Below are positions 5,853 to 20,146 of a stretch of 32,000 bases of DNA, piece after piece. This DNA comes from Rhodoferax sp. Lineage in GTDB: Bacteria > Pseudomonadota > Gammaproteobacteria > Burkholderiales > Burkholderiaceae_C. Made by a program: the position numbers and the translations under genes. Under the pieces are notes generated by a model, which was not told where the DNA came from, did not search any database, and saw nothing but the letters and a program-made list of their open reading frames with translations. The stretch's first letter is position 1. The number at the start of each line of letters is the position of its first letter. Location: the NCBI GenBank assembly GCA_008015235.1, contig SSFF01000015.1, positions 58,727 through 90,726 on the forward strand, read 5' to 3'.

Positions 5853-6749
5853 TCAGGCCACTCCCGCGTTCCAATGCATTTTTTCGCGCAGCGTATCAAA
5901 GTACGACCAGCCCTTGGGGTGCAGGAAGCGCACATGGTGGTCGCTGCGTGTGACCACGATGCGGTCGCCGTGCATCAGTGAGGCCAGCGACTGCATGTCG
6001 AAGTTGGCGCTGGCATCGCGTCCTGCTACGATTTCTATAGCTACTTCTGCAGCGTTTGCAAGGACAAGCGGCCGATTTGACAGTGTATGTGGGGCGATGG
6101 GCACCAGCACCCAGCCCGGCAGGCTGGGATGCAGCAGCGGCCCGCCCGCCGAGAGCGAGTAGGCGGTGGATCCGGTGGGTGTGGCCACGATCAGGCCGTC
6201 GGCACGCTGGTTGGCCACGAAGCGGCCATCGACCTCCACGCGCAGTTCCACCATGCCCGAAGTGGCGCCGCGGTTGACCACTACGTCGTTCATGGCTTGG
6301 GCGGCGAACACGCAATGGCCGTCGCGCAGCACGCGCGCCTGCATCAGGCTGCGGTGGTCTTCCTCGTACTCGCCGGCCAGCATGGGCGGCAGCACGGTCT
6401 GGTACTGGTCCAGGCGAATGTCGGTAATGAAGCCCAGGCGCCCCTGGTTGATGCCGATGAGTGGCACGCCGTACTGCGCCAGCTTGCGGCCAATGCCCAG
6501 CATGGTGCCGTCGCCACCGACCACCAGGCACAGGTCGCATTCCTCGCCGATACCGGCCACATCGCGGGTCGGGTAGTCGGTAACGCCAATGTGCGTGGCC
6601 GTGTCCTTCTCGAACACCACTTCGCAGCCCATGTCCATGAGGAAGTGGGCAATTCCATCCAGTACGGCGCGCGAGGACGGGCCCGAACTGGCGCCGCTGG
6701 AGGCGTGGTACTTGCCGATCAGTGCGACTTGCTGGAATTTCGATTTCAT
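5853..6749 (-). CDS. nadK: NAD kinase
   Basis: GGDGTMLG motif, [26 protein letters not shown] at 6749 is preferred over the TTG at 6755. Its stop is 1 nt from the recN start. Confidence 0.9.
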
Positions 6750-6790
6750 CGGCAAATTACATCATTAATTTCTGTCACTAAAATGAAACG

Positions 6791-7795
6791 ATGCTTGATG
6801 ACCGTTCCAAGATGTTGATGAAGGCGCTGGTGGAGCGCTATATCGCCGACGGGCAGCCCGTGGGGAGCCGCACGCTCTCGCGCGCATCGGGTCTGGAGCT
6901 GTCGCCCGCCACCATCCGCAACGTGATGGCTGACCTGGAGGAGCTGGGCTTGATCGCGAGTCCGCACACCTCGGCCGGGCGCATTCCCACCGCACGCGGC
7001 TACCGCCTGTTTGTGGACACCATGCTCACGGTGCAGCACGACAACCTGCCGGCCCAAAGCCTGGCGCCGGGGCAGCCCCAGCGCGTGATTTCCAACGCCG
7101 CCAATTTGCTTTCCAGCCTGTCGCAGTTTGTGGGCGTGGTCATGGCGCCCAAGCGTGCTTCGGTGTTCCGCCATATCGAGTTCTTGCGTTTGTCGGAGCG
7201 CCGGGTGCTGGTCATCATCGTCTCGCCCGATGGTGACGTGCAAAACCGCGTCATCTTTACCGAGGTGGACTACACCCAGAGCCAGTTGGTGGAGGCGGCC
7301 AACCACCTCAACACCCATTACCTGGGGCTGGACATCGACCAGGTGCGCGAAAAGCTGCAAAACGAAGTGGAGAGCCTGCGCACTGAAATTGCGGCGCTCA
7401 TGCAGGCGGCCGTCACGGTGTCGAGCGAGGCCCTGACCGAAACCGAAGACGAGGTGGTGATCTCGGGCGAACGCAACCTGCTGTCGGTGTCGGACTTTTC
7501 CAGTGACATGGGCAACCTGCGCCGCGCCTTCGAGCTGTTTGAGCAAAAAGCCCAGCTCATGCGCTTGCTCGACGTGGCCGGACAGGCCGACGGTGTGCGC
7601 ATCTTCATCGGTGGCGAAAGCCAGGTGGTGCCGTTTGAAGACCTGTCAATCGTCAGCAGCCCCTACGAGGTGGACGGCAAGGTGGTGGGCACGCTGGGTG
7701 TCATCGGCCCCACGCGCATGGCCTACGACCGCATGATCCAGATCGTGGACATCACCTCCAAATTGGTTAGCAACGCGCTGAGCCACCACAAGTAG
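6791..7795 (+). CDS. hrcA: Heat-inducible transcription repressor HrcA
   Basis: [29 protein letters not shown]...[37 protein letters not shown], a typical HrcA N-terminal wHTH. Divergent from nadK. Confidence 0.92.
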
Positions 7796-10554: not shown

Positions 10555-10600
10555 GGGGCGTTAGCTCAGTTGGTTAGAGCAGAGGACTCATAATCCTTTG
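10555..10600 (+). pseudogene. 5' 46 nt of the disrupted host tRNA(CAU) gene (attL side)
   Basis: GGGGCGT-TA-GCTC-AGTTGGTTA-GAGC-A-GAGGA-CTCATAA-TCCTT-TG, then it breaks into TTTTTTCCAAAAAAATTG. There is no T arm or acceptor 3' strand. Confidence 0.85.
10587..10600 (+). repeat. attL core, direct repeat CTCATAATCCTTTG
   Basis: Identical 14-mer at 20102-20115. It covers the anticodon loop plus the 3' anticodon stem. Confidence 0.8.
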
Positions 10601-10680
10601 TTTTTTCCAAAAAAATTGAGCTGATGCGTTGTAAGCGTTGCTACATATAGATAGTTTGCTATTGATAATGTAGCTTTCAT

Positions 10681-10701
10681 GCTTGCACACCGCTTGCACA
10701 C
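10681..10701 (+). repeat. Two tandem GCTTGCACAC motifs (candidate integrase arm-type sites, attL side)
   Basis: GCTTGCACAC at 10681-10690 and 10692-10701. A third copy is at 11085-11094. Degenerate copies lie near the right end. Confidence 0.45.
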
Positions 10702-10750
10702 TTTTTCCCAAAAAGTTGCAACGATTACCACAGTTAAAATTGCGAAGAGT

Positions 10751-11033
10751 GGGGCGTTAGCTCAGTTGGTTAGAGCAGAGGACTCATAAAATTTTGTGCC
10801 ATACGATTGGGAAACTGCGTATGGGATGGCGTCAAATTCGATGAAACCTAAGTGCAGCAATGCATAGGGCAATGTCGAGCCAAGCTTCAGCGCTTTTGTG
10901 CTGTTGAAGGTGTAGAGACTAGACGGCGCCCACCTAAAGCGAAAGCAATGGTGAAGGCATAGTCCAGCGAGTGGCGAAAGTCACACAAAGCAGAATCCTT
11001 TGGTCGTTGGTTCAAGTCCAACACGCCCTACCA
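10751..11033 (+). tRNA. Island-borne tRNA(CAU) interrupted by a group I intron. Exons are 10751-10787 and 10994-11033. It resembles tRNA-Ile2 (lysidine) more than elongator Met.
   Basis: The joined exons give a 77-nt cloverleaf: GGGGCGT TA GCTC AGTTGGTTA GAGC A GAGGA CTCATAA TCCTT TGGTC GTTGG TTCAAGT CCAAC ACGCCCT A CCA. G27-U43, the TGGTC variable loop and the TTCAAGT T loop resemble E. coli ileX as I remember it. Confidence 0.85.
10788..10993 (+). ncRNA. Group I intron, IC3 / Azoarcus pre-tRNA-Ile type, 206 nt, in the anticodon loop after CAU
   Basis: Blocks match my memory of the Azoarcus ribozyme: GTGCC, GGGATGGCGTCAAATTCG, GAAACCTAAG, GAGCCAAGCTTC, GAAGGTGTAGAGACTAGACGGCGCCCACCTAA and GAAGGCATAGTCCAGCGAGTGGCGAAAGTCACACAAAGCAG. 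It ends in G (omega-G 10993). P2-like stem CCATACG/CGTATGG. GTG (10796-10798) can pair with exon CAU. Confidence 0.85.
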
Positions 11034-11084
11034 CTTCTTACAGTGAACTGGCTTTTATAAAAGCGCCAGCACTAGTGTCATTTC

Positions 11085-11094
11085 GCTTGCACAC
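11085..11094 (+). repeat. Third GCTTGCACAC motif, between the island tRNA and int
   Basis: Exact 10-mer match to 10681-10690. Confidence 0.4.
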
Positions 11095-11132
11095 TCATTG
11101 TCCACTGCGACGCATGAAGTTACAGTGTGCGC

Positions 11133-12494
11133 ATGCCTCCAAAAGTTGAATCAACACACGTCTTAATGGACAAAACGCTCGTGCTTTACAGGCGCGAACG
11201 TAGTGGCATTTGGCAGTGTCGTTACAAGGTTGCAGGCGTATGGCAACGAGCTACAACAAAAGAACGCGACATTGAAAAAGCAAAGGATCAGGCCAAGCGC
11301 TTGATGATTGAAGCTGAGTTGCGTAAGCGTGAGAACTTGCCAGTCATCACACGCAGATTTAGAGATGTTGCCAAGCTAGCTGTGCAGCGTTTGGAAGACG
11401 AGCAGAAGAACGGCAAGGGCAAGGTCATCTACAAGGATTACATCCGTGTCATCAACGACGTATGCGTGCCGTTTTTAGGCAAACGCAACATTACGACGAT
11501 TGACTACGCTGTATTGGATGAGTTTGAAACATGGCGTGCAGAGCAGATGGGCAAGGCACCCACACGTAGCACGTTAATGACGCAGAACGCAGCTTTGAAC
11601 AGGGTGTTTGATGAAGCTGTGATACGTGGCTTTTTGATGCAGGCGAACAAGCCCGTGCTTAAGGCAACTGGCAAGAAAAGCGAACGACACGCAGCGTTTG
11701 ACGTGAAAGAAACAAAGGCGCTGCTTGGCAATTTTGATGAGTGGATTGAGCGAGCAAAAAACGACGAAAGTAAAGAGCTGCGAATGCTCTTGCGCGACTA
11801 TGTCCATGCGCTATTAGACACAGGTGCAAGGCCTGGCGACGAGCTGCTGAACTTGAAGTGGAAGCAGGTCAAAGTTGCAATAAAGCCCACTGTTGTGAAG
11901 GAAGGCATTGAAGGCAACGAAGACGCAGTAGATGCACACAACCTGAATTTGAGCTGTGAACTAACGGTTACAGGGAAAACAGGCACACGCACGATGCTTG
12001 GCATGGAGCGCACAGTGAGAGCGTTGCAGCGGATTGCAAAGCGCAATTACAAAGAAGTTGGCGAGCCGCTAGCGCCGTTGAAGCATGTAGCGATTGCTAC
12101 GAACAATGACTACGTGTTCCGCACCAAAGCAAAGGTCAAACCTACGAGTTTTTCAAAGCTGTTTGACACGTACTTAGAAGAGCACAACTTGCTGATTGAC
12201 CCAGCTACGGAGCGCAAGCGTGTCTTCTATAGCCTGCGGCACACATATGCAACGCAAATGCTTACCAACGACGGTGTGCCAATCCACACGCTGGCTAAGC
12301 AAATGGGAACGAGCGTTGTAATGATTGAAAAACACTACAGCCACTTAAAGGCAGTGCAAGCTATTGAGCAACTGCGCGGCGAAGAGACACGCAAGTTGCT
12401 GGAGGCAGGTGGCGTGATTGATGAAATCTATAAAGCAAAGCCAGCGAAGAAGAATGCAAACAAATTGGTTCGCAAAAGTGAGTCAAAGTGCTGA
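11133..12494 (+). CDS. int: Tyrosine-type site-specific integrase
   Basis: LLDTGARPGDEL (box I Arg), YSLRHTYATQML (HxxR) and GTSVVMIEKHYSH (catalytic Tyr). It sits next to the left att end. The start is uncertain (GTG 11127, ATG 11133 or ATG 11166). Confidence 0.9.
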   Translation: MPPKVESTHVLMDKTLVLYRRERSGIWQCRYKVAGVWQRATTKERDIEKAKDQAKRLMIEAELRKRENLPVITRRFRDVAKLAVQRLEDEQKNGKGKVIYKDYIRVINDVCVPFLGKRNITTIDYAVLDEFETWRAEQMGKAPTRSTLMTQNAALNRVFDEAVIRGFLMQANKPVLKATGKKSERHAAFDVKETKALLGNFDEWIERAKNDESKELRMLLRDYVHALLDTGARPGDELLNLKWKQVKVAIKPTVVKEGIEGNEDAVDAHNLNLSCELTVTGKTGTRTMLGMERTVRALQRIAKRNYKEVGEPLAPLKHVAIATNNDYVFRTKAKVKPTSFSKLFDTYLEEHNLLIDPATERKRVFYSLRHTYATQMLTNDGVPIHTLAKQMGTSVVMIEKHYSHLKAVQAIEQLRGEETRKLLEAGGVIDEIYKAKPAKKNANKLVRKSESKC

Positions 12495-12545
12495 ATGGAT
12501 TGGCTATAAACTATTAAGTAGATTAAATATAGAAATGAATAAATT

Positions 12546-13055
12546 ATGTCAGCAAGAAAATCATACACAAGCGTTACTGTTAAGTTGACAGATGGGGATT
12601 TGTGCGATGTTAAAAGATACGTAGATAATTTAATTCGCAGACATGAAAACAATGAAGAGCGAATTGATGAAATTATTGTTATTAATGGAATAGGCTATAA
12701 GCGTGAAGAGATTTATGGCGTAAAAATTTTGCTTGATGAAATTTTGGATAATGATGGCGATTTCATCGAAAGTGATGCGTTGAAGATTGTTGAGTATGTT
12801 GCTCCATCAGATTTCGAAAAGTTTATTGGCGAAGATTTGTACGTAAAGAAAAATGTGGCGGAGTTGAAAATCCGTTTTATTGAATTGCAGTTGATACTGG
12901 ATTTTTTAGATCAGGTTAGGCTGCTATCAGAAATTGAAGAATCTAAGTATTCGTTATGTGAGGTAAATGATTTTACCTTGCCAGATAATTTAGAGAATGG
13001 CACAGATGCTGAAAAGGAGTTGTGGGAAAGCTATAACAGAAGAAATAGAAAATGA
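12546..13055 (+). CDS. Hypothetical acidic protein, 169 aa, very AT-rich gene
   Basis: Long ORF in AT-rich DNA where stop codons are frequent by chance. I recognise no motif. Confidence 0.55.
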   Translation: MSARKSYTSVTVKLTDGDLCDVKRYVDNLIRRHENNEERIDEIIVINGIGYKREEIYGVKILLDEILDNDGDFIESDALKIVEYVAPSDFEKFIGEDLYVKKNVAELKIRFIELQLILDFLDQVRLLSEIEESKYSLCEVNDFTLPDNLENGTDAEKELWESYNRRNRK

Positions 13056-13097
13056 TATGGGCTATCATTGGTGGTCAATTATCAATATATTTCGAAC

Positions 13098-13115
13098 ATC
13101 AAAGATATCTTTGAT
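13098..13115. promoter_or_regulatory. Perfect 18-bp palindrome ATCAAAGATATCTTTGAT upstream of the H-NS gene (candidate operator)
   Basis: Perfect dyad 50 nt upstream of the GTG start at 13165. Confidence 0.35.
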
Positions 13116-13164
13116 AAGAAGTCAACTATCATGTTGGCTCCAATAACTATCGTTTGGAGTAAAC

Positions 13165-13557
13165 GTGGCACGAACAACGTTGGAAACACAACTGGCAAAG
13201 CTGCGTAAGCAGCGTGAGGCAATTGAGGCGAAAGAAAAAGCCTTACTTGCAAGAGCAAATGACAAGGTGATTGCTGAAATCGTCGCCCTTGCAAAGAAGC
13301 ACAACGTGACGATTGAAGAGCTAAGCGATGCGATGGATACTGCAAAGCGAAAGCGTTCTGCTAAAGGTACACGTCATGCAGCTAAAGCCCCCCGCAAAGC
13401 TGCTAAAACTGCTGACAAGCGCGCCAAAGTTGCTCCCAAGTACCGTAATCCTGCGAACGCTGCTGAGACGTGGACAGGGCGTGGCCGTACGCCGTTGTGG
13501 GTGCAGGCACTGAAGACTGCAGGACAGTTGGAAACTGCAGTGATTGCCACTGAATAG
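13165..13557 (+). CDS. H-NS family nucleoid-associated protein (xenogeneic-silencer type)
   Basis: Coiled-coil N-terminus, Lys/Ala-rich linker and a C-terminal YRNPANAAETWTGRGRTPLWV motif (H-NS DNA-binding TWxGRGRxPxW). GGAG lies 6 nt before the GTG. Confidence 0.85.
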   Translation: MARTTLETQLAKLRKQREAIEAKEKALLARANDKVIAEIVALAKKHNVTIEELSDAMDTAKRKRSAKGTRHAAKAPRKAAKTADKRAKVAPKYRNPANAAETWTGRGRTPLWVQALKTAGQLETAVIATE

Positions 13558-13572
13558 CTTTTTTTGCATAGC

Positions 13573-13606
13573 AAAAAAGCCCACTGTTTAACGAGTGGGC
13601 TTTTTT
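13573..13606. terminator. Bidirectional intrinsic terminator between the H-NS gene and the ATPase gene
   Basis: A6-AGCCCACT-GTTTAACG-AGTGGGCT-T6: an 8-bp stem flanked by an A-run and a T-run. Confidence 0.75.
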
Positions 13607-13609
13607 GTT

Positions 13610-13628
13610 GTGTCGTTTTAAACGACAG
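13610..13628 (+). repeat. Hairpin motif copy A: GTGTCGTTTTAAACGACAG
   Basis: 17/19 identical to copies at 15157 and 16353. It overlaps the ATPase stop codon (TTA at 13618-13620 on the plus strand). Confidence 0.65.
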
Positions 13629-14310
13629 CTTGTGAAATTGATGCTGTTCGCAATCGTTGGACTTTTATGATCACTTGCACAATTGCATTCACAACATCTC
13701 GTGCAGAACCATTGAACGGTTCAATGATTTTTACCAACGTCGCATCTTTCACGCTGTTTATCCCAGCATCTGCCAGCATCCTCCGCGTCAGTGGCAGCCA
13801 CTTGCTGGCTGGCGCAGCATTGAATGGGATGCAGTGACAGCGATTGCGCACACCCATTTCGACTTTGTCGAAATAGTTAGTAGTCATTATGAATATCGTC
13901 TGCGGGATATTCATAACTGACTTCAATGTCTGCATGGCCGCAACATTCAAGTTGTCCACTTCGTCCAAAACGAAATAATGGTGACTGGCAAGAGGAAGCA
14001 GAACGGCTTGCTGTTCTAGTTTCGCCATCAACAGCGCTCCGTTGTTGCCTGGCTGTATTCGCTCAAAACGTTCGTTGGCAACGCCATTGCTGCGCATGGC
14101 TTCCATAGCGTTTGGCAGAAGTTGTGCGAGTGCGCTTTTGCCAGTGCCAGGCACACCGTATAGCAAGATGCCATTTTTGCCAGACAACGGAAACGGATGT
14201 GCACCGCAGATGAGATCGTCAACAAGCACCCGCTTGTCATCGTCTGCAAACACTATATCTGCAATGGATTTGGGGGCGTAGTCATTGGGATTGAACATCG
14301 TGTTCGTCAT
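13618..14310 (-). CDS. AAA+ ATPase, clamp-loader (RFC small subunit / DNA pol III delta-prime) like
   Basis: Walker A LLYGVPGTGKSALA, Walker B YFVLDEVDNL, then AMQTLKSVMNIPQTIFIMTTN and GVRNRCHCIPF (SRC-like sensor). ATG at 14310 is preceded by AGGAAG. Confidence 0.8.
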   Translation of the reverse strand: MTNTMFNPNDYAPKSIADIVFADDDKRVLVDDLICGAHPFPLSGKNGILLYGVPGTGKSALAQLLPNAMEAMRSNGVANERFERIQPGNNGALLMAKLEQQAVLLPLASHHYFVLDEVDNLNVAAMQTLKSVMNIPQTIFIMTTNYFDKVEMGVRNRCHCIPFNAAPASKWLPLTRRMLADAGINSVKDATLVKIIEPFNGSARDVVNAIVQVIIKVQRLRTASISQAVV

Positions 14311-14369
14311 AGTCTTCCTTTCTTCTTTTTTGATTCGCTGAGCAGCAATCACTACTCAGCTTTGAGCAA

Positions 14370-15224
14370 TCAGGCTGCTAGTGCTTCAGCAACAGCTTGT
14401 TCTTGTGCAGTGATGGTTAAAGTCGCATCGTTTGCTGCGACCTGTTCTGCGACTTGTGTTTTTGTCTCAGGCTTTGACTTACTTTCGCTGTGGTAGCTGG
14501 CCAGTGCAGCGTTCAATGCAGTGTCGCTTTGCACGACAGCCTGAACAGCGACAGTTCCATCTGCCTGCCAAGTTCCAATCAGCACGACCTGCGCGCCAAT
14601 CTTTCCTGCGTCAAGTTGTGCGCCCAACTGCAAGCCCACAGCGACGCCCATGCTTTTTGTTGCAATGCTGGCTTTAGCCTGCGCGGCCTTCTGCGTGGAA
14701 GATAGCGCGGTGCTGTTGGGTTTTTTGCCCAAGCGAATTGCCTCCACCCCGCCAGCATTGGTGATAAACGTCGCAATTTGATCTGCTGCAACTCCATCTT
14801 GCAGTGCTTTCTGCAGCACCACGCTATAGGCGCTGACACGGCGACGATCTGTGCCGTCATTGCTGGTGCTGTCGCTGAACACGCACTTGACGATCTTGCT
14901 GATCGTGTGGGTTGATTTGAGGAACTTATAGCCCTTTTTGTTGACGTAGTTGTTTAGCGCATCACGCAGCTTCTTTGCTTCATCCCCATCTACCCCCATA
15001 TCCTTGTATAGCTGGTAGCACTTTTGCAGCAAGGCGTACAACATTTCATTGCTCGTACGGTAGACAGTGGTTTCCCACGCCTGACGATCAATTGCCAGTT
15101 GCTCAATGCGTTCAAACGTGTACGTGGGCGCAATAGTGCTGGTGGCATTCGCTGCAGTGTCGTTTTGCACGACAGGCGCAGTGTTAGTGGAAGAAGAGGA
15201 CACGAGAGCGGTAGCGTTTTGCAT
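14370..15224 (-). CDS. Hypothetical protein, 284 aa, upstream partner of the AAA+ ATPase
   Basis: ATG at 15224 is preceded by AAGGAG. The Ser/Thr/Ala-rich termini carry the repeated peptide VVQ(N/S)DTA. I recognise no family. Confidence 0.65.
   Translation of the reverse strand: MQNATALVSSSSTNTAPVVQNDTAANATSTIAPTYTFERIEQLAIDRQAWETTVYRTSNEMLYALLQKCYQLYKDMGVDGDEAKKLRDALNNYVNKKGYKFLKSTHTISKIVKCVFSDSTSNDGTDRRRVSAYSVVLQKALQDGVAADQIATFITNAGGVEAIRLGKKPNSTALSSTQKAAQAKASIATKSMGVAVGLQLGAQLDAGKIGAQVVLIGTWQADGTVAVQAVVQSDTALNAALASYHSESKSKPETKTQVAEQVAANDATLTITAQEQAVAEALAA
14521..14539 (+). repeat. Hairpin motif copy B: GTGTCGCTTTGCACGACAG
   Basis: Inside the 284-aa gene, encoding AVVQSDT on the minus strand. 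Confidence 0.7.
15157..15175 (+). repeat. Hairpin motif copy C: GTGTCGTTTTGCACGACAG
   Basis: Inside the 284-aa gene, encoding PVVQNDT on the minus strand. Confidence 0.7.
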
Positions 15225-15371
15225 TTGGAACTCCTTAGTAATGCAAGTTAATAAAGACAGCGTCAATGTGTTTGCTGCCATCGCCGCATCAGTTTGTTGC
15301 TGCGATGTATGTAATGTATTTTTCATATCAACAATGTGCGATAGTTGAAATAGACGGTTATATTTACAGCT

Positions 15372-16352
15372 ATGAATAGAGCGCAACGTCATTTCTTCAA
15401 AGGACTTCCAAGCTTCGTTGCGCCCAACGACGACATGGAGATAGCTGAAGCGAGGGAGAGCATCTATTACTGGTGGTGGGCCTTTGCGCGGCTCAGTCCA
15501 GTGCTCTGGTATGCAAACCAGACAGGCTTGAAACCCATTGATCCAGCTATCGCAAAAGTGACAGAAGCGCTTGGCGATTTGTGGCGTTACCCAGCCTTTG
15601 GCGTGTGGTGGAAAACACGCGGCAGCAAGGTGTTTGCTGAATCAAAGCGACCAGCAAAGGTGCAGCAACTGGATCTTTCACTACTGCACGAACATCCCTT
15701 TGACAAAGACAAGATGTACGTGGAAGTGCCGCTGAATATTCGCCAGCAGACCATCGTTAGCCAATTCAAAAAGCTATTGGCGCAGGAGCATGAAGGGCGA
15801 GCATTAAATCTTGCAGCTCACAGCACCGCGCACTTGGCACTGCATACAAAGCGCTACAGGCTCAGCACCATTGAAAAGGAGTACTGGGTACTGCTTTACC
15901 GTCTGCTGTACCCAAATATTGAGATTTGGCGTATTGGTGACCGTCTGCAAGTAGCACCACACCTCAAAGTGCGTGACACAGCAGGTGCAGAGGCACTAAA
16001 GCGCAAGCATGCGCTCAATGCTGTCACTGGCCGCTACTACTACAAGGCCAGATTCACGTTGCTTAACTTGGAGCGCGACAGCTTTCCCAACTTCAGCGAA
16101 ATTCACGTCAGTAGTAGGAAGCAGCCATTTGGTAGTGAACACCAAAAAGCATTTCGCGCGGCGACGGAAGATGGAATTGATGGCAAAACCTCTGCATGGG
16201 CACAGTGGTTGAAGGACACTTATTTGGAAGAACTGCACAGAGAGGTCAAGCGCCGTGTCCCGCACTTGGAATACAACATGCGCAGGCCAGAGAGCAATGC
16301 GCGGCACCGCATTCCTGCCTTTGTGGCTGGTACCAGTGACTTGCTGGAGTAA
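15372..16352 (+). CDS. Hypothetical Trp-rich protein, 326 aa
   Basis: Long ORF divergent from the 284-aa gene. N-terminus contains IYYWWWAFARLSPVLWY. I recognise no family. Confidence 0.6.
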   Translation: MNRAQRHFFKGLPSFVAPNDDMEIAEARESIYYWWWAFARLSPVLWYANQTGLKPIDPAIAKVTEALGDLWRYPAFGVWWKTRGSKVFAESKRPAKVQQLDLSLLHEHPFDKDKMYVEVPLNIRQQTIVSQFKKLLAQEHEGRALNLAAHSTAHLALHTKRYRLSTIEKEYWVLLYRLLYPNIEIWRIGDRLQVAPHLKVRDTAGAEALKRKHALNAVTGRYYYKARFTLLNLERDSFPNFSEIHVSSRKQPFGSEHQKAFRAATEDGIDGKTSAWAQWLKDTYLEELHREVKRRVPHLEYNMRRPESNARHRIPAFVAGTSDLLE

Positions 16353-16373
16353 GTGTCGTTTTGCACGACACTT
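16351..16373 (+). repeat. Hairpin motif copy D, extended to a 9-5-9 dyad: AAGTGTCGT-TTTGC-ACGACACTT
   Basis: Starts within the stop codon of the 326-aa gene and ends 7 nt before the recombinase stop. It is intergenic between convergent genes. Confidence 0.7.
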
Positions 16374-16379
16374 GAGTTG

Positions 16380-16946
16380 CTAGACCAATTCCACTGCGTT
16401 GCGCTTCATGTCGTCATTCACATCAATGTATTTCTGTGTCACTGCGATGCTGCGATGACCAGCGAGACTTGCCAGCACACGTACGCCTACGCCTTTGCTT
16501 GCAAGGTTCGTAATAAACGACCTGCGGCCACTGTGGCTACTTGCGCCATCAATGCCTGCCTTGCGATACAGCCAAAAGAAGTGCTGCGTAAGTACGTTTG
16601 CAGTGAATGCCTTTCTACCTGCTGTAACAAACAAAGGTTGTTCTAAGTTGGTCACGCCACGTGCGAACATGTAGCGTTGTAGTTCTGTGCGCAGTTTTTC
16701 GCCAATAAACACAGTGCGAGGATGACGGCCTTTGGTTTGCTCCGCTGCCAAGCGAACTTCGTGTTTGACAGTTCCATCTGCATTCATTACGTCGCCCACT
16801 TTCAAACTTGCAATCTCCCCAACGCGCATGCCTGACCAAAAGCTCGTCAGCAGCATCACGCGATTGCGCAGTGCAAAGCTTCGCGTTGCTATATATGCAA
16901 GTACCTTGTCAATTTCTACTTGTGTAAGTGTTTTTGCTTGTGCCAT
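16380..16946 (-). CDS. Single-domain tyrosine recombinase, 188 aa (FimB/FimE-sized, catalytic domain only)
   Basis: SGMRVGEI (Arg), SSHSGRRSF (HxxR) and AGHRSIAVTQKY (His...Tyr). AAGGAG lies before the ATG. There is no N-terminal arm-binding or SAM-like domain. Confidence 0.85.
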   Translation of the reverse strand: MAQAKTLTQVEIDKVLAYIATRSFALRNRVMLLTSFWSGMRVGEIASLKVGDVMNADGTVKHEVRLAAEQTKGRHPRTVFIGEKLRTELQRYMFARGVTNLEQPLFVTAGRKAFTANVLTQHFFWLYRKAGIDGASSHSGRRSFITNLASKGVGVRVLASLAGHRSIAVTQKYIDVNDDMKRNAVELV

Positions 16947-17306
16947 TTTGTTGCTCCTTTGTGCTTAATAAATACGTGTGTTATTAATGTATTTTCTTAA
17001 GCAGGCATGGGCAACCAAATAATGCAAAGGTCGCTTAATTCATTTCTTATATAGACACCAAAGGAAATAGCAATAAGCTTTGGTGTTTGAGTATTTTTGT
17101 TTCCAGCCCTTTGCAGCACTTCTTCCTGTTCCTGCTGTCTATGCGTGCGCTGTCCCGTTTGCGTTGCTTGTAGCTTGTTTTGTGCGTTCGCTGCGCTGTT
17201 TTCAAACTGTAAGTGCTGGCAGTAATTTTTAGGCAAAGCGAAGCTAATTAAAGCTTCATGCAGCTTTAAGAGTTTCAGCAAGAGGCAAACGTGGCCAGTA
17301 ATGCTG

Positions 17307-17822
17307 TCAAGCCACGTTCCACAGTACATTGTCAGTACTGTGTGCGTTCAGCTCTTTCGTCATGTATTCCATCCAGCCGCTGTCCATTACCTGTACATCG
17401 TGCTGTTCATCCATCCCATCAACCAACGCAATCGCGTTCTTCACCATCTCTTTAAACAGCATGGGCTTTTGTTCAAAGCCGCCTACTGCAAGGTGCAAGT
17501 GCAGACGTTTACCGTTACCAACACCTTCAACCGTTGCAAAGTAGCGCAGGCCTTTGCCGTCTCGCTTTGCTGCATGGCCGTAAGCCTGTTTGTTTAGCTT
17601 CTGTGTAAAGCGTTTGGCAATGCCTTCGCAGTCTTCGCGCTTTAGCTTGCGCATGTAGACGCCATTGTTGTTTTTGACTTTGTACGACTGCTTAAGCGTC
17701 AGCGTGACTGCGAATTGAAACTCCTGCATGTGACCATTTAGCCAGGTGCGTAATGCGTCTTTGCAAGCAGTACGTGCGTTGGCGTTGTAAGCAGTGATCT
17801 CCCGTATGCGCTGTAAGTCCAT
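17307..17822 (-). CDS. Small HUH-motif protein, candidate rolling-circle Rep / Inovirus Gp2 (YfjJ/YagK)-like
   Basis: FAVTLTL (Rep motif I-like), RLHLHLAVGG (His-hydrophobic-His) and WMEYMTKE (Tyr motif), in the canonical order. Start is either ATG 17822 or TTG 17843. Confidence 0.4.
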   Translation of the reverse strand: MDLQRIREITAYNANARTACKDALRTWLNGHMQEFQFAVTLTLKQSYKVKNNNGVYMRKLKREDCEGIAKRFTQKLNKQAYGHAAKRDGKGLRYFATVEGVGNGKRLHLHLAVGGFEQKPMLFKEMVKNAIALVDGMDEQHDVQVMDSGWMEYMTKELNAHSTDNVLWNVA

Positions 17823-17894
17823 GCATATATTTATTCCTGCCAAATAAAACCAAATATTTTTCTTGCCGTTATTTGGTTAGGTCATAAATACAGT

Positions 17895-18110
17895 ATGAGA
17901 TTTTTTGAATTTGCCCCTAAAACACCAACGCTACCCAAGCCAAAAACGCCAGATCAGCAGCGAGTTGCAGTCTTGCAAGGAAACAAGGATCGTGCTGCAG
18001 AAGCTTTGAAGAAGGAGCGGCAACGGCAGCAAGTGAGCAATGCGCAGAAGACGATTGCGAGGGTCAATGCGTCGCAGCCTATGCAAATGCCCAAACCTGC
18101 TACCAATTGA
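17895..18110 (+). CDS. Hypothetical small basic Pro/Lys/Gln-rich protein, 71 aa
   Basis: ORF divergent from the Rep-like gene, followed by a 9-bp stem hairpin GATGTGTTA-CTTTAT-TAACACATC (18109-18132). Confidence 0.4.
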   Translation: MRFFEFAPKTPTLPKPKTPDQQRVAVLQGNKDRAAEALKKERQRQQVSNAQKTIARVNASQPMQMPKPATN

Positions 18111-18290
18111 TGTGTTACTTTATTAACACATCTAAGTCTGCCAAAGCTTTTAGTGCTGTTTGTATGGCCGCATTTGGTTTTGCATGAATTGGATGCGGTA
18201 CCCAGTCATGCTGTACGGGTACAGGTTGCGAAAGAACGAAGGCTGAAAATACATTTGTCTGTGCTTTAACAAATATTGAAAGGAAAGCAC

Positions 18291-18731
18291 ATGGCAACAG
18301 CACTCGCGTCCCTCAAGTTCACAACTGCAAAGAAGTCCAGTCAACTGTCTCCTGTGCAGTCGCGCCGCAACAAGATCATTGCCAAATTGGAAGAGCAGAT
18401 TGCGTTGGCAACTGCGCAGGCAGAAGGGCGTGTGTATGCGCCAGCAAAATTTAAGACGGTGACAGATGCAAACGGCGAACGGCGCAGCGTTGAAACGGCG
18501 AAGCGCGTTAAACAGTGGTGGTTCGCAACAGTAGACGGCAAACTGGCGCTGACGGTGCGTTATGGCGCAAAGGTGCTTGAGTTGGCAAAGGGAAAGAACG
18601 CTGTGGACGTAGGCACTGCCGCGCAATTAGTGCCAGTGCTGACGCTGTTAAAGCAAGCAGCTGAAGCTGGCGAACTGGATGCTGCTATTGAGGCTGCTGG
18701 TGCGGCTTTGCGGAAAGGATTTGCAAAGTAA
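18291..18731 (+). CDS. Hypothetical protein, 146 aa
   Basis: ATG at 18291 is preceded by AAAGGAAAG. Composition is typical of the moderately AT-rich part of the island. Confidence 0.6.
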   Translation: MATALASLKFTTAKKSSQLSPVQSRRNKIIAKLEEQIALATAQAEGRVYAPAKFKTVTDANGERRSVETAKRVKQWWFATVDGKLALTVRYGAKVLELAKGKNAVDVGTAAQLVPVLTLLKQAAEAGELDAAIEAAGAALRKGFAK

Positions 18732-18864
18732 CTGGTATAGTATTTTGACGGATTTGATTTTAGAACTTCTGGCCGCTAAGTGTGGTTTTTTTCCTGCGTC
18801 GTTGGTGTAAGAGGTTTTTTGGACTATTTTTATTGACATTTACTAGATTGTTAGAGGGGGGTCT

Positions 18865-19884
18865 ATGCACTTTTGTTTGAAATTTATTATTTTGTCGCTA
18901 GTTTCATTTTCAGTAAACGCGCAACTTAATGGAGATGCTCGACGTAATTGGATGGGCCAGTATTTTGGAGCCTGCTATAAATCCCAAGTGGCAGATGCGT
19001 CAAATGTCGATGTGCCGCCAGTTATGATTGCTCAATATTGCAGTTGCGCTAGCGAGCAAACAGCGCAGGCATTGACTGATGGTTTGTTGGCAGAAATAGA
19101 TGCTGGGACAAAAAATCTTCCACAAAATATAAACACTGATGCGGCTAAGTTTTGCCTTACAAGTTTTAAAAAATATCCATCGAGTCCATTTGCTGAGAGG
19201 GTGATTAGTAGTGAGTCTGCAAAGAACATTAAGCTCTTTGATGGCACTACACAGCGATTTACGGCATATCGCCAGTTTGTATATGATAAAAATTGGAAGC
19301 TATTGCAAGACAAGGAACTGCCAAATGGCAAATATCTTTTTGATGTTAATTTTGCCCCAAATAGATCTCAAAATTTGGCCAGAGATGTAACCAGTGGTGT
19401 GGTTTATAGTCTTTTTGTTTCAGAGCAGGCGACAGAAGAATCGCGTAAAAAGGGTTTTGATTTTCTATTTTTTGTACCAGAAATTTCTGGTAATCTTGCA
19501 ATTAACTCAGTCAAAAATATTTTCGTTTCACAGTATTTTGATGTGCGAGATGGTAAATTTTATGAAACGCACTATGTTCGTTCTCAGGCGCTCATTTGTT
19601 CCGCATTAAACGAAGCGAAAATTCGTGCTCAAAAATCTATGGCCGCATCGATTTTTAAAGAGCTTCTTCTTGTTGCTATTAAAAGCTATGCTGGAGCAAG
19701 TTATAGCGGTGGAACTTTTACTGGAACAGCAAACGGCGGGACCTTTGTTGGTTCATTTCGTAAATATGACAGTACATGGCTTGGGGAGCACTATTCGCGG
19801 GGGTTGGATGCTGTATTTAACGGTACTGCTAGTTTGGGGGAGATAACTGATGAGCAGAATCGTTTGAAGTGTTCTGAAATTTAA
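18865..19884 (+). CDS. Hypothetical secreted protein, 339 aa, very AT-rich gene
   Basis: RBS AGAGGGGGG, signal peptide MHFCLKFIILSLVSFSVNAQ. I recognise no family. Confidence 0.6.
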   Translation: MHFCLKFIILSLVSFSVNAQLNGDARRNWMGQYFGACYKSQVADASNVDVPPVMIAQYCSCASEQTAQALTDGLLAEIDAGTKNLPQNINTDAAKFCLTSFKKYPSSPFAERVISSESAKNIKLFDGTTQRFTAYRQFVYDKNWKLLQDKELPNGKYLFDVNFAPNRSQNLARDVTSGVVYSLFVSEQATEESRKKGFDFLFFVPEISGNLAINSVKNIFVSQYFDVRDGKFYETHYVRSQALICSALNEAKIRAQKSMAASIFKELLLVAIKSYAGASYSGGTFTGTANGGTFVGSFRKYDSTWLGEHYSRGLDAVFNGTASLGEITDEQNRLKCSEI

Positions 19885-20023
19885 TTCGCTTGAATTTAAT
19901 TTTTTGGAACCCTTTTGTGCGCACTTGATCGATGAGAGGGGGTGTGCAAATACTGCGAATAATTGATGTGTTGCGCATTGCCATTGGCGTGCAAGTCTTA
20001 TAAAAGCAGTAGTTATTTCAGAT

Positions 20024-20045
20024 GCTTACACACTTTGCTGCACAC
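20024..20045 (+). repeat. Degenerate arm-type motifs GCTTACACAC and GCTGCACAC (attR side)
   Basis: Each has 1 mismatch to the GCTTGCACAC consensus. An inverted GTGTGCAA lies at 19942-19949 and GCGTGCAAG at 19987-19995. Confidence 0.4.
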
Positions 20046-20101
20046 TGAAAAAAACCACGCTGTAAACCGCATAAACACTAGGTTTTGTGAAATAAATTTT
20101 T

Positions 20102-20115
20102 CTCATAATCCTTTG
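20102..20115 (+). repeat. attR core, direct repeat CTCATAATCCTTTG
   Basis: Identical to 10587-10600. Confidence 0.8.
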
Positions 20116-20146
20116 GTCGCGGGTTCAAGTCCCTCACGCCCTACCA
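20102..20146 (+). pseudogene. 3' part of the disrupted host tRNA(CAU): anticodon loop to CCA
   Basis: CTCATAA-TCCTT-TGGTC-GCGGG-TTCAAGT-CCCTC-ACGCCCT-A-CCA, preceded by island AT-rich DNA. 10555-10600 plus 20116-20146 equals 77 nt. Confidence 0.85.

Follow-up and report, generated by a model that had tools for sequence, protein, structure and literature searches.

A betaproteobacterial island that splits a tRNA(CAU) gene and carries an intron-bearing replacement

In the classical tRNA-restoring arrangement that Williams reportedly set out in 2002, the attP attachment site of an island carries the transfer RNA (tRNA) sequence from the crossover to the 3' end, so that attL rebuilds the gene. 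The principle of disrupting a tRNA gene and bringing a replacement was already published in 2024 for actinophages, as the tRNA-dependent lysogeny of actinobacteriophages such as Fionnbharth (Guerrero-Bustamante and Hatfull, 2024, PMC10865867). Experiments with mycobacteriophages in that study established a 10-bp core, no rebuilding of the tRNA at attL or attR and a requirement for the phage tRNA; the paper discusses neither introns nor how the element's tRNA escapes being a target. The group I intron in the pre-tRNA-Ile(CAU) of Azoarcus sp. BH72 is given as 205 nt long and of subgroup IC3 in PMC3895272 (citing Reinhold-Hurek and Shub, 1992). For Archaea, Randau and Soll are summarised in a passage of PMC4390854 as holding that disrupted or intron-containing tRNA genes are protected from integrating elements. 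IStrons are group I introns fused to an insertion sequence (IS) element (PMC4227781). Here we describe an integrated island in a 32,000-nt stretch of DNA from Rhodoferax sp. (the window; assembly GCA_008015235.1, contig SSFF01000015.1, positions 58,727-90,726) that interrupts the host tRNA(CAU) gene and carries its own complete tRNA(CAU) gene, which contains an Azoarcus-type group I intron.

The island split the host tRNA(CAU) at the anticodon loop and so destroyed the gene. Its limits are set by base composition, direct repeats and an unoccupied site in a relative (Table 1, in window positions). G+C content is 39-52% between the repeats vs 58-68% in the flanks, with the drop starting at 10601 and not at 11034. 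The longest string common to both junctions is CTCATAATCCTTTG, exactly 14 bp. Joining 10555-10600 to 20116-20146 yields an intron-less 77-nt tRNA(CAU), identical at 77/77 positions to the intact intron-less tRNA(CAU) at the syntenic site of Curvibacter sp. APW13. There the genes upstream are those of the window (NAD kinase, hrcA, DUF3015, DUF4105), and the intact tRNA(CAU) comes next; APW13 also supplies the best named relative (70%) of the DUF4105/Lnb protein encoded in the island's flank, a protein that places the host in the Comamonadaceae.

Neither junction retains a tRNA. At attL, identity stops 14 bp into the core, after which the sequence reads TTTTTTCC; the Rfam tRNA model falls below threshold there, with the 3' half unpaired. 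ARAGORN calls no tRNA at 10555-10631 (attL) or upstream of 20146 (attR). The right junction reads TTTTT followed immediately by CTCATAATCCTTTGGTCGCGGG, which places bases of tRNA exon 1 directly against bases of exon 2. Since these bases are contiguous at attR, the target gene had no intron. The tRNA remainder is followed by a hairpin and a T-run, then by high-GC host DNA. Because neither junction rebuilds the tRNA, the intron-bearing copy is a replacement. An initial annotation of the window had put the left end of the island 150 bp upstream of the intron-bearing tRNA, which agrees with an att core ending at 10600, but it missed the main point, that the island destroys the host tRNA(CAU) and the intron-bearing gene replaces it.

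With introns allowed, ARAGORN predicts a tRNA(cat) of 77 nt that is interrupted by a 206-nt intron at its position 37/38 (between tRNA positions 36 and 37), and the spliced sequence folds into a perfect cloverleaf. The initial annotation had read a tRNA split after CAU by 206 nt ending in G, with a perfect cloverleaf restored by removing 10788-10993; its coordinates and boundaries are exact, and the spliced fold is the one it described. By repeat comparison within the window, island exon 1 is identical to the host 5' tRNA half; the initial 46 nt of the island tRNA recur without the intron at 10555-10600, and its 3' half has a diverged counterpart at 20102-20146. The spliced island tRNA and the host tRNA have four differences, all in the T stem (GTTGG/CCAAC in island exon 2 vs GCGGG/CCCTC in the host). 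The closest Escherichia coli relative of the spliced tRNA is 87% identical and is annotated by PGAP as tRNA-Ile with anticodon CAT, so the island and host genes most likely encode tRNA-Ile2, as in Azoarcus. tRNA-Ile2 is the lysidine-modified decoder of AUA.

Default ARAGORN reports no tRNA anywhere in the window, and a default Rfam scan at gathering thresholds reports no family. In a permissive Rfam scan, 10776-10986 aligns along the whole length of RF00028 (Intron_gpI; model positions 1-253), scoring 48.4 bits with E = 3.8e-11. The gathering score of RF00028 is 50 bits, so the window intron lies 1.6 bits lower; this cut-off is a curation threshold and not a biological property. The default scans come back empty because the gene is split and the RF00028 score is just under its cut-off, and the island tRNA gene therefore escapes routine annotation.

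The inserted sequence is a true group I intron of the Azoarcus type (IC3-like) and an ordinary member of that family. Every helix of the catalytic core (P3-P8 with the P3/P7 pseudoknot, and P4-P6) can be placed on the window sequence. The intron is inserted after the anticodon, GAAA loops cap P2 (10811-10814) and P9 (10976-10979), and there is no P5abc. To assess covariation, 61 distinct pre-tRNA(CAU) homologues were aligned, and the window sequence served as the reference on which P1-P9 and the tRNA stems were defined. Among these homologues, 93.6% of base-pair cells are paired vs 30-41% when the 3' partners are slid, and 46 of the 79 pairs show compensatory change on both sides. None of 500 shuffles reached any of the observed pairing measures. 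P3, P6, P7 and P8 are paired in 61/61 homologues, as is the U.G pair at the 5' splice site (T10787.G10796 in the window). Double compensatory changes are seen in P2, P3, P4, P5a, P6, P8 and P9. An earlier P6a pairing, CTTC/GAAG, conflicted with the covariation and was replaced by GCC/GGT.

The initial annotation had recognised an Azoarcus-type IC3 intron at the same site in the same kind of tRNA. The full-length RF00028 match, the helices and the covariation bear this out, including the conserved P3-P9 pairing on which that proposal depended. The label 'IC3' rests on homology to the Azoarcus type, since no subgroup-specific model was used. The window intron is about 83% identical to the Azoarcus ribozyme, a figure that serves as a lead and not as a test; the two differ by compensatory changes in P2, P5a, P6a and P8.

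To survey the family, we searched with a strict pattern of 25 bases from two core blocks, GTAGAGACTAGACGG...GGCATAGTCC; all genome-derived counts are lower bounds. Matches to the pattern occur in 35 viral contigs and in no fewer than 120 genomes, each representing a species. The initial annotation had called group I introns in bacterial tRNAs rare; in Betaproteobacteria, this family is not. The genome matches listed are mostly betaproteobacterial (Polynucleobacter, Limnohabitans, Rhodoferax, Massilia, Methylophilaceae, Rhodocyclaceae and Chitinibacter). The intron lies in tRNA(CAU) at 64 of the 155 loci listed, the others being Leu(UAA), Ser(UGA), Arg(CCU) and more. The window intron is 77-95% identical to introns elsewhere, the nearest being 86-88% identical in the genomes listed and 95% in metagenome locus L156.

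Dozens of Betaproteobacteria share the layout seen in the window. At 23 of the 59 CAU-intron loci listed, the intron-bearing gene is preceded, at a distance of 165-465 bp, by the 5' part of an intron-less tRNA(CAU) that breaks off at the anticodon loop (the host fragment). Among the 49 genome loci listed, the host fragment is present at 23, only the integrase at 1, neither at 18, and the flanks are too short at 7; open reading frames (ORFs) were judged by eye at the loci with only a fragment and by size alone at those with neither. The host-fragment layout is thus found at 23/42 determinable genome loci among the matches listed. Homologues of the island integrase (43-62% identity) lie just downstream of homologous intron-bearing tRNAs at about 11 of the genome loci listed. 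At several of these loci the small recombinase and DUF6641 genes of the island are present as well. More broadly, integrase homologues (43-81% identity) adjoin tRNA(CAU) in many genomes and metagenomes.

At some loci a matching attR fragment lies 0.8-7 kb downstream, and at some the arrangement is tandem. The shared core shrinks to CTCATAA in many relatives, and the minimal common core is therefore the 7-nt anticodon loop. The intron insertion point, CTCAT/AA, falls inside it.

Several individual loci add to this picture. Two contigs that encode a 96%-identical DUF4105 protein (L244 and L245) both end inside the 5' half of tRNA(CAU). Because short-read assemblers are expected to break at a duplicated tRNA segment, this suggests that these closest relatives also carry an island here. 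Polynucleobacter locus L042 has two successive host-like 5' fragments before one intron-bearing tRNA, and the Polynucleobacter loci L089 and L090 each have two intron-bearing tRNA(CAU) genes a few kb apart; these tandem arrangements suggest repeated integrations at one site. In the complete chromosome of Methylophilaceae ME-M6 (L139, ~6497-7780, intron-forward), the intron-bearing tRNA stands between both host halves within ~1.2 kb. This looks like a decayed island remnant and shows how the intron could come to look native. Locus L041, from a metagenome-assembled genome labelled Akkermansia muciniphila, has a host fragment and an intron-bearing tRNA(CAU) nearly identical to those of Limnohabitans (L088, L126) and is probably a mis-binned betaproteobacterial contig.

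Intron-bearing tRNA(CAU) genes also occur in viral contigs of IMG/VR (L004, L007, L010, L012, L015, L017, L021, L023 and L026). The host-fragment signature was found in none of the intron-bearing IMG/VR contigs whose flanks allow a call, and the viral contigs hold almost no relatives of this integrase. Phage-borne intron-bearing tRNAs may be another vehicle of the intron.

We also approached the family from the integrase side. Out of at least 456 relatives, 80 metagenome loci were chosen only by integrase similarity (56-81% identity) and their upstream content was scored; three classes of locus emerged. In class A, int immediately follows a host-type tRNA(CAU) that lacks an intron, and no fragment lies further upstream (three loci have 745-1662 bp of flank). 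The 3' half is here restored by the island, as in the classical layout, and integrase relatives next to tRNA-Lys and tRNA-Phe have a similar arrangement. Class B (16 loci, one integrase clade) has the host fragment and a complete tRNA(CAU) that lacks an intron and whose anticodon stem is rewritten, GTCGA/TCGAT or GGCGA vs GAGGA or GCGGA in the target. In the class B locus L166, two stem bases are the sole differences in the whole 5' half of the tRNA. Class C pairs the host fragment with a complete tRNA(CAU) that contains the intron and retains a stem of host type. It accounts for 5/5 intron-bearing survey loci with enough flank, plus the window, and spans about four separate integrase lineages interleaved with class A. 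Intron-bearing copies match the host stem exactly at 19 of the 23 genome loci listed and at all five metagenome loci. A host fragment together with an unmodified complete tRNA was found at none of about 44 loci, even with relaxed searching.

At one further metagenome locus (L164, 146-469), ARAGORN calls a tRNA-Leu(UAA) whose intron measures 245 nt, and an integrase homologue follows directly. The call may be spurious; if real, it would be another pair of tRNA and intron used by the same island family.

These observations can be joined in the following scheme. The anticodon stem-loop of the host tRNA(CAU) probably served the tyrosine integrase as the target for a short attP core, CTCATAA[TCCTTTG]. 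With no more than 14 bp in common, the host gene ends up split and a tRNA is rebuilt at neither junction. To make up for the loss, the island would supply a complete tRNA(CAU) of its own, which lies between the att core and int. Its intron would excise itself by two transesterifications, initiated by guanosine, to give the mature 77-nt tRNA. By analogy with the tRNA-dependent lysogeny of mycobacteriophages, we infer that the island tRNA compensates for the destroyed host gene after self-splicing. Such a complete replacement, 150 bp from attP, would itself be an attB for its own or a sibling integrase. The element could avoid targeting itself by a recoded stem, as in class B, or by the intron, as in class C. 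In the latter case the intron would be kept for putting 206 bp between the loop and the 3' stem half-site, which would leave the replacement gene unusable as attB.

An alternative form of masking, in which the intron destroys the 7-nt crossover, was rejected for the window, where AA are the first two bases of the intron and the junction still reads CTCATAA. Elsewhere the loop sequence is altered, at its last one or two bases, in 49 of the 61 intron variants. Since CTCATAA is preserved in the window, the masking idea narrows to the displaced 3' half-site, and masking in the window may be partial.

Taken as a whole, the best explanation, and one we consider likely, is a non-phage island that splits the host tRNA-Ile(CAU) and replaces it with an intron-bearing copy, the intron being kept as a mask and spread by the islands. 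Its parts deserve separate weight. That the intron masks the replacement tRNA from the integrase is a tentative proposal, somewhat easier to doubt than to accept. Slightly more speculative is the wider idea that the intron is a functional part of the element that gives it immunity, and that the islands are the vehicle of endonuclease-less tRNA(CAU) introns and leave native-looking ones, such as that of Azoarcus, after decay. Several observations count against the scheme. Five of the eight class A loci have upstream sequence too short to exclude a counterexample to masking, and few independent lineages stand behind the pattern (one class B clade and about four class C lineages). In Burkholderiaceae ZE-4 (L112), a host-like fragment ~210 bp upstream of the intron-bearing tRNA has the stem GACGA with C at position 29. 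It misfits a simple rule that C29 blocks integration, because the recoded tRNAs of class B share C29. The intron of the window leaves the 5' half-site joined to CTCATAA, and of the next seven bases only three differ from the true 3' half-site. A scan for consensus promoters and terminators around the island tRNA found nothing, and the TAAAAT upstream of it (10735-10740) is a promoter candidate by eye only. The intron-bearing tRNA also occurs with neither the host fragment nor this integrase at 18 genome loci listed, so the intron exists outside recognisable islands too.

This last point, with the occurrence of the intron in phage contigs, suits an intron that is only a passenger: either the island took its replacement tRNA from a lineage in which tRNA-Ile(CAU) had the intron beforehand, or a selfish intron invaded the island copy, and it persists because splicing makes it harmless. 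The same island family has intron-less replacement tRNAs, the loop sequence and 5' half-site are intact at the exon-intron junction of the window, and the actinophage systems function without any intron (PMC10865867). However, a passenger leaves unexplained why the intron-less replacements are all stem-rewritten and the intron-bearing ones all of host type, and why about 44 loci include no unmodified complete copy with a host fragment; nor does it account for the position of the intron, which falls precisely within the att site's minimal common core. We regard it as the main rival, though rather unlikely. Even a passenger would be moved physically between genomes by the islands, without an endonuclease of its own, just as a mask would. 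Decay is harder to reconcile with the data. The intron or tRNA could be a dying pseudogene while the cell uses a tRNA-Ile2 copy elsewhere; the window spans only 32 kb, so further copies are possible, and the Rfam score is just below the curated cut-off. Yet the catalytic-core helices are all intact and the spliced cloverleaf is perfect. These, the 95% identity to the intron of the nearest island relative (L156) and the strong covariation of the family point to purifying selection and not decay, and we consider a dead relic highly improbable. The classical layout would make the intron-bearing tRNA the host's own gene, with the island starting at its 3' end and the 5' fragment an unrelated relic. 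A tRNA followed by an integrase at ~100 bp is indeed the textbook arrangement, and relatives of the integrase sit in this way beside tRNA(CAU), tRNA-Lys and tRNA-Phe. But attR joins exon-1 to exon-2 bases, so the target was intron-less; the outer halves rebuild a Curvibacter-identical tRNA, whereas the intron-bearing copy has another T stem; the GC drop begins at 10601 and not at 11034; and arm-type repeats lie within the 150-bp spacer. This interpretation was rejected on the attR sequence and the unoccupied site in APW13, and its chance of being right is very small.

At attL (10578-10606), the truncated host anticodon stem-loop is followed by an island-encoded run of six T and resembles an intrinsic terminator. 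This structure could stop transcription from the orphaned host tRNA promoter.

An exact GCTTGCACAC repeat occurs three times in the window (~0.06 expected by our own arithmetic), each time in the stretch that separates the att core from int, and the motif GCTT(G/A)CACAC stands at matching positions in L156, L092, L161, L168 and L216. Conserved repeats flanking the att core are as expected of arm-type integrase sites, for which they are candidates. In related islands the integrase is accompanied by the small recombinase, DUF6641, the ATPase and ORF326/340; the first of these two proteins, and DUF6641 with it, are found beside the large integrase in L036, L075, L092 and most metagenome loci, and may perhaps act in excision or resolution. 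Pfam and PHROG searches found no virion, packaging or lysis genes among the island ORFs. The element is therefore an integrative island and not a prophage, though it works like tRNA-dependent lysogeny. Its H-NS-like gene may be an element-borne xenogeneic silencer. A 31-nt dyad-symmetric repeat (...GTGTCG-N-TTTGCACGACAG) has four copies in the island (13598-13628, 14509-14539, 15145-15175 and 16341-16371), two of them at gene boundaries; the copies may be binding sites for a regulator or recombinase.

Table 1. Features of the island, its junctions and the intron (window positions; helices as 5' strand/3' strand)
Feature	Position	Strand	Remarks
Host tRNA(CAU), 5' part	10555-10600	+	tRNA positions 1-46; intron-less; ends after the 3' strand of the anticodon stem; attL side
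Left 14-bp core, CTCATAATCCTTTG	10587-10600	+	Anticodon loop and 3' stem strand; attL crossover region
Integrated island	10601-20115		9,515 bp; from composition, direct repeats and unoccupied site in relative
Two exact GCTTGCACAC repeats	10681-10690, 10692-10701	+	Candidate arm-type integrase sites, ~90 bp from att core
Island tRNA(CAU), exon 1	10751-10787	+	37 nt; positions 1-36 plus 17a; ends with anticodon CAT; ARAGORN, introns allowed
Group I intron	10788-10993	+	206 nt; terminal G at 10993; Rfam RF00028, helices, covariation
P1	10785-87/10796-98		
P2	10799-805/10818-24		
P3	10828-33/10925-30		
P4	10838-43/10873-78		
P5	10847-50/10865-68		
P6	10879-81/10909-11		
P6a	10888-93/10898-903		
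P7	10917-21/10960-64		
P8	10931-34/10950-53		
P9	10971-75/10980-84		
Island tRNA(CAU), exon 2	10994-11033	+	40 nt; positions 37-76; encoded CCA
Third exact GCTTGCACAC repeat	11085-11094	+	Between island tRNA and int
Tyrosine integrase (int)	11133-12494	+	453 aa from MPPKVE...; PF00589; PHROG 1 integrase; ~100 bp downstream of island tRNA
ORF169	12546-13055	+	Island cargo
H-NS-like protein	13165-13557	+	PF00816 C-terminal domain; low-GC island
AAA/clamp-loader-like ATPase	13618-14352	-	Island cargo
ORF340	14370-15392	-	Island cargo
ORF326	15372-16352	+	Island cargo
Small tyrosine recombinase	16380-16946	-	188 aa; island cargo
Rep ORF2/G2P-like	17307-17843	-	Island cargo
DUF6641	18276-18731	+	Island cargo
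ORF339	18865-19884	+	Island cargo
GCTTACACAC and GCTGCACAC	20024-20045	+	Arm-type-like repeats just inside right end; one-mismatch copy at 20024; also sequence reading
Right 14-bp core and host tRNA(CAU) 3' remainder	20102-20115 (core), to 20146	+	attR side

To our knowledge, no homing endonuclease accompanies the group I introns of bacterial tRNAs, and since the early 1990s it has been an open question by what route these introns spread. An intron physically tied to integrase islands offers a concrete, testable route for horizontal transfer and later fixation. The island extends tRNA-dependent lysogeny, so far described only in actinophages, to non-phage islands of Betaproteobacteria. It also exposes a design problem: an element that targets a tRNA gene carries a copy of the same gene beside its own attP. 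This self-targeting problem has apparently been solved twice, by an intron or by a recoded stem. Default tRNA and Rfam annotation overlooks tRNA genes of this kind. The cassettes of integrase, att site and tRNA could serve as integration tools. The initial annotation knew of no tRNA intron described as cargo of an integrase-bearing island; the intron-bearing tRNA is carried in this way here, and no published description was found. Our literature search likewise found no report of an island- or phage-borne complementing tRNA with a group I intron, and none of the alternative between an intron and a recoded stem.

The window intron is like that of Azoarcus in tRNA type, in its insertion after CAU, in length (206 vs 205 nt) and in its compact build, with P2 and P9 capped by GAAA and no P5abc extension. 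Unlike the Azoarcus intron, described in a chromosomal gene, it sits on a mobile island and in a replacement gene. As in tRNA-dependent lysogeny, a tyrosine integrase with flanking arm-type sites (here candidates) would use a core in the anticodon region of a tRNA that is not rebuilt, and the element carries a complementing tRNA, which in the window differs from the host's at four T-stem positions. The core is 10 bp in the actinophage system, 14 bp in the window and 7 bp in relatives. Unlike the actinophages, this is a 9.5-kb island without virion genes, found in Betaproteobacteria and targeting tRNA(CAU); its complementing tRNA lies in the attP region next to int, with an intron in the att core, or in sister islands a rewritten stem. 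The proposal of Randau and Soll shares with ours an anticodon-loop intron that breaks up a site used by site-specific recombinases. It concerns archaeal host genes and protein-spliced introns, whereas the window has a ribozyme intron in the element's own gene, in Bacteria. In an IStron the intron renders the transposon's own insertion harmless, whereas the window intron interrupts a tRNA gene carried as cargo, and the element owes its mobility to a tyrosine integrase. Finally, the island departs from the classical tRNA-restoring island (anticodon-loop sublocation) in that identity ends after 14 bp, although some relatives of its integrase appear classical.

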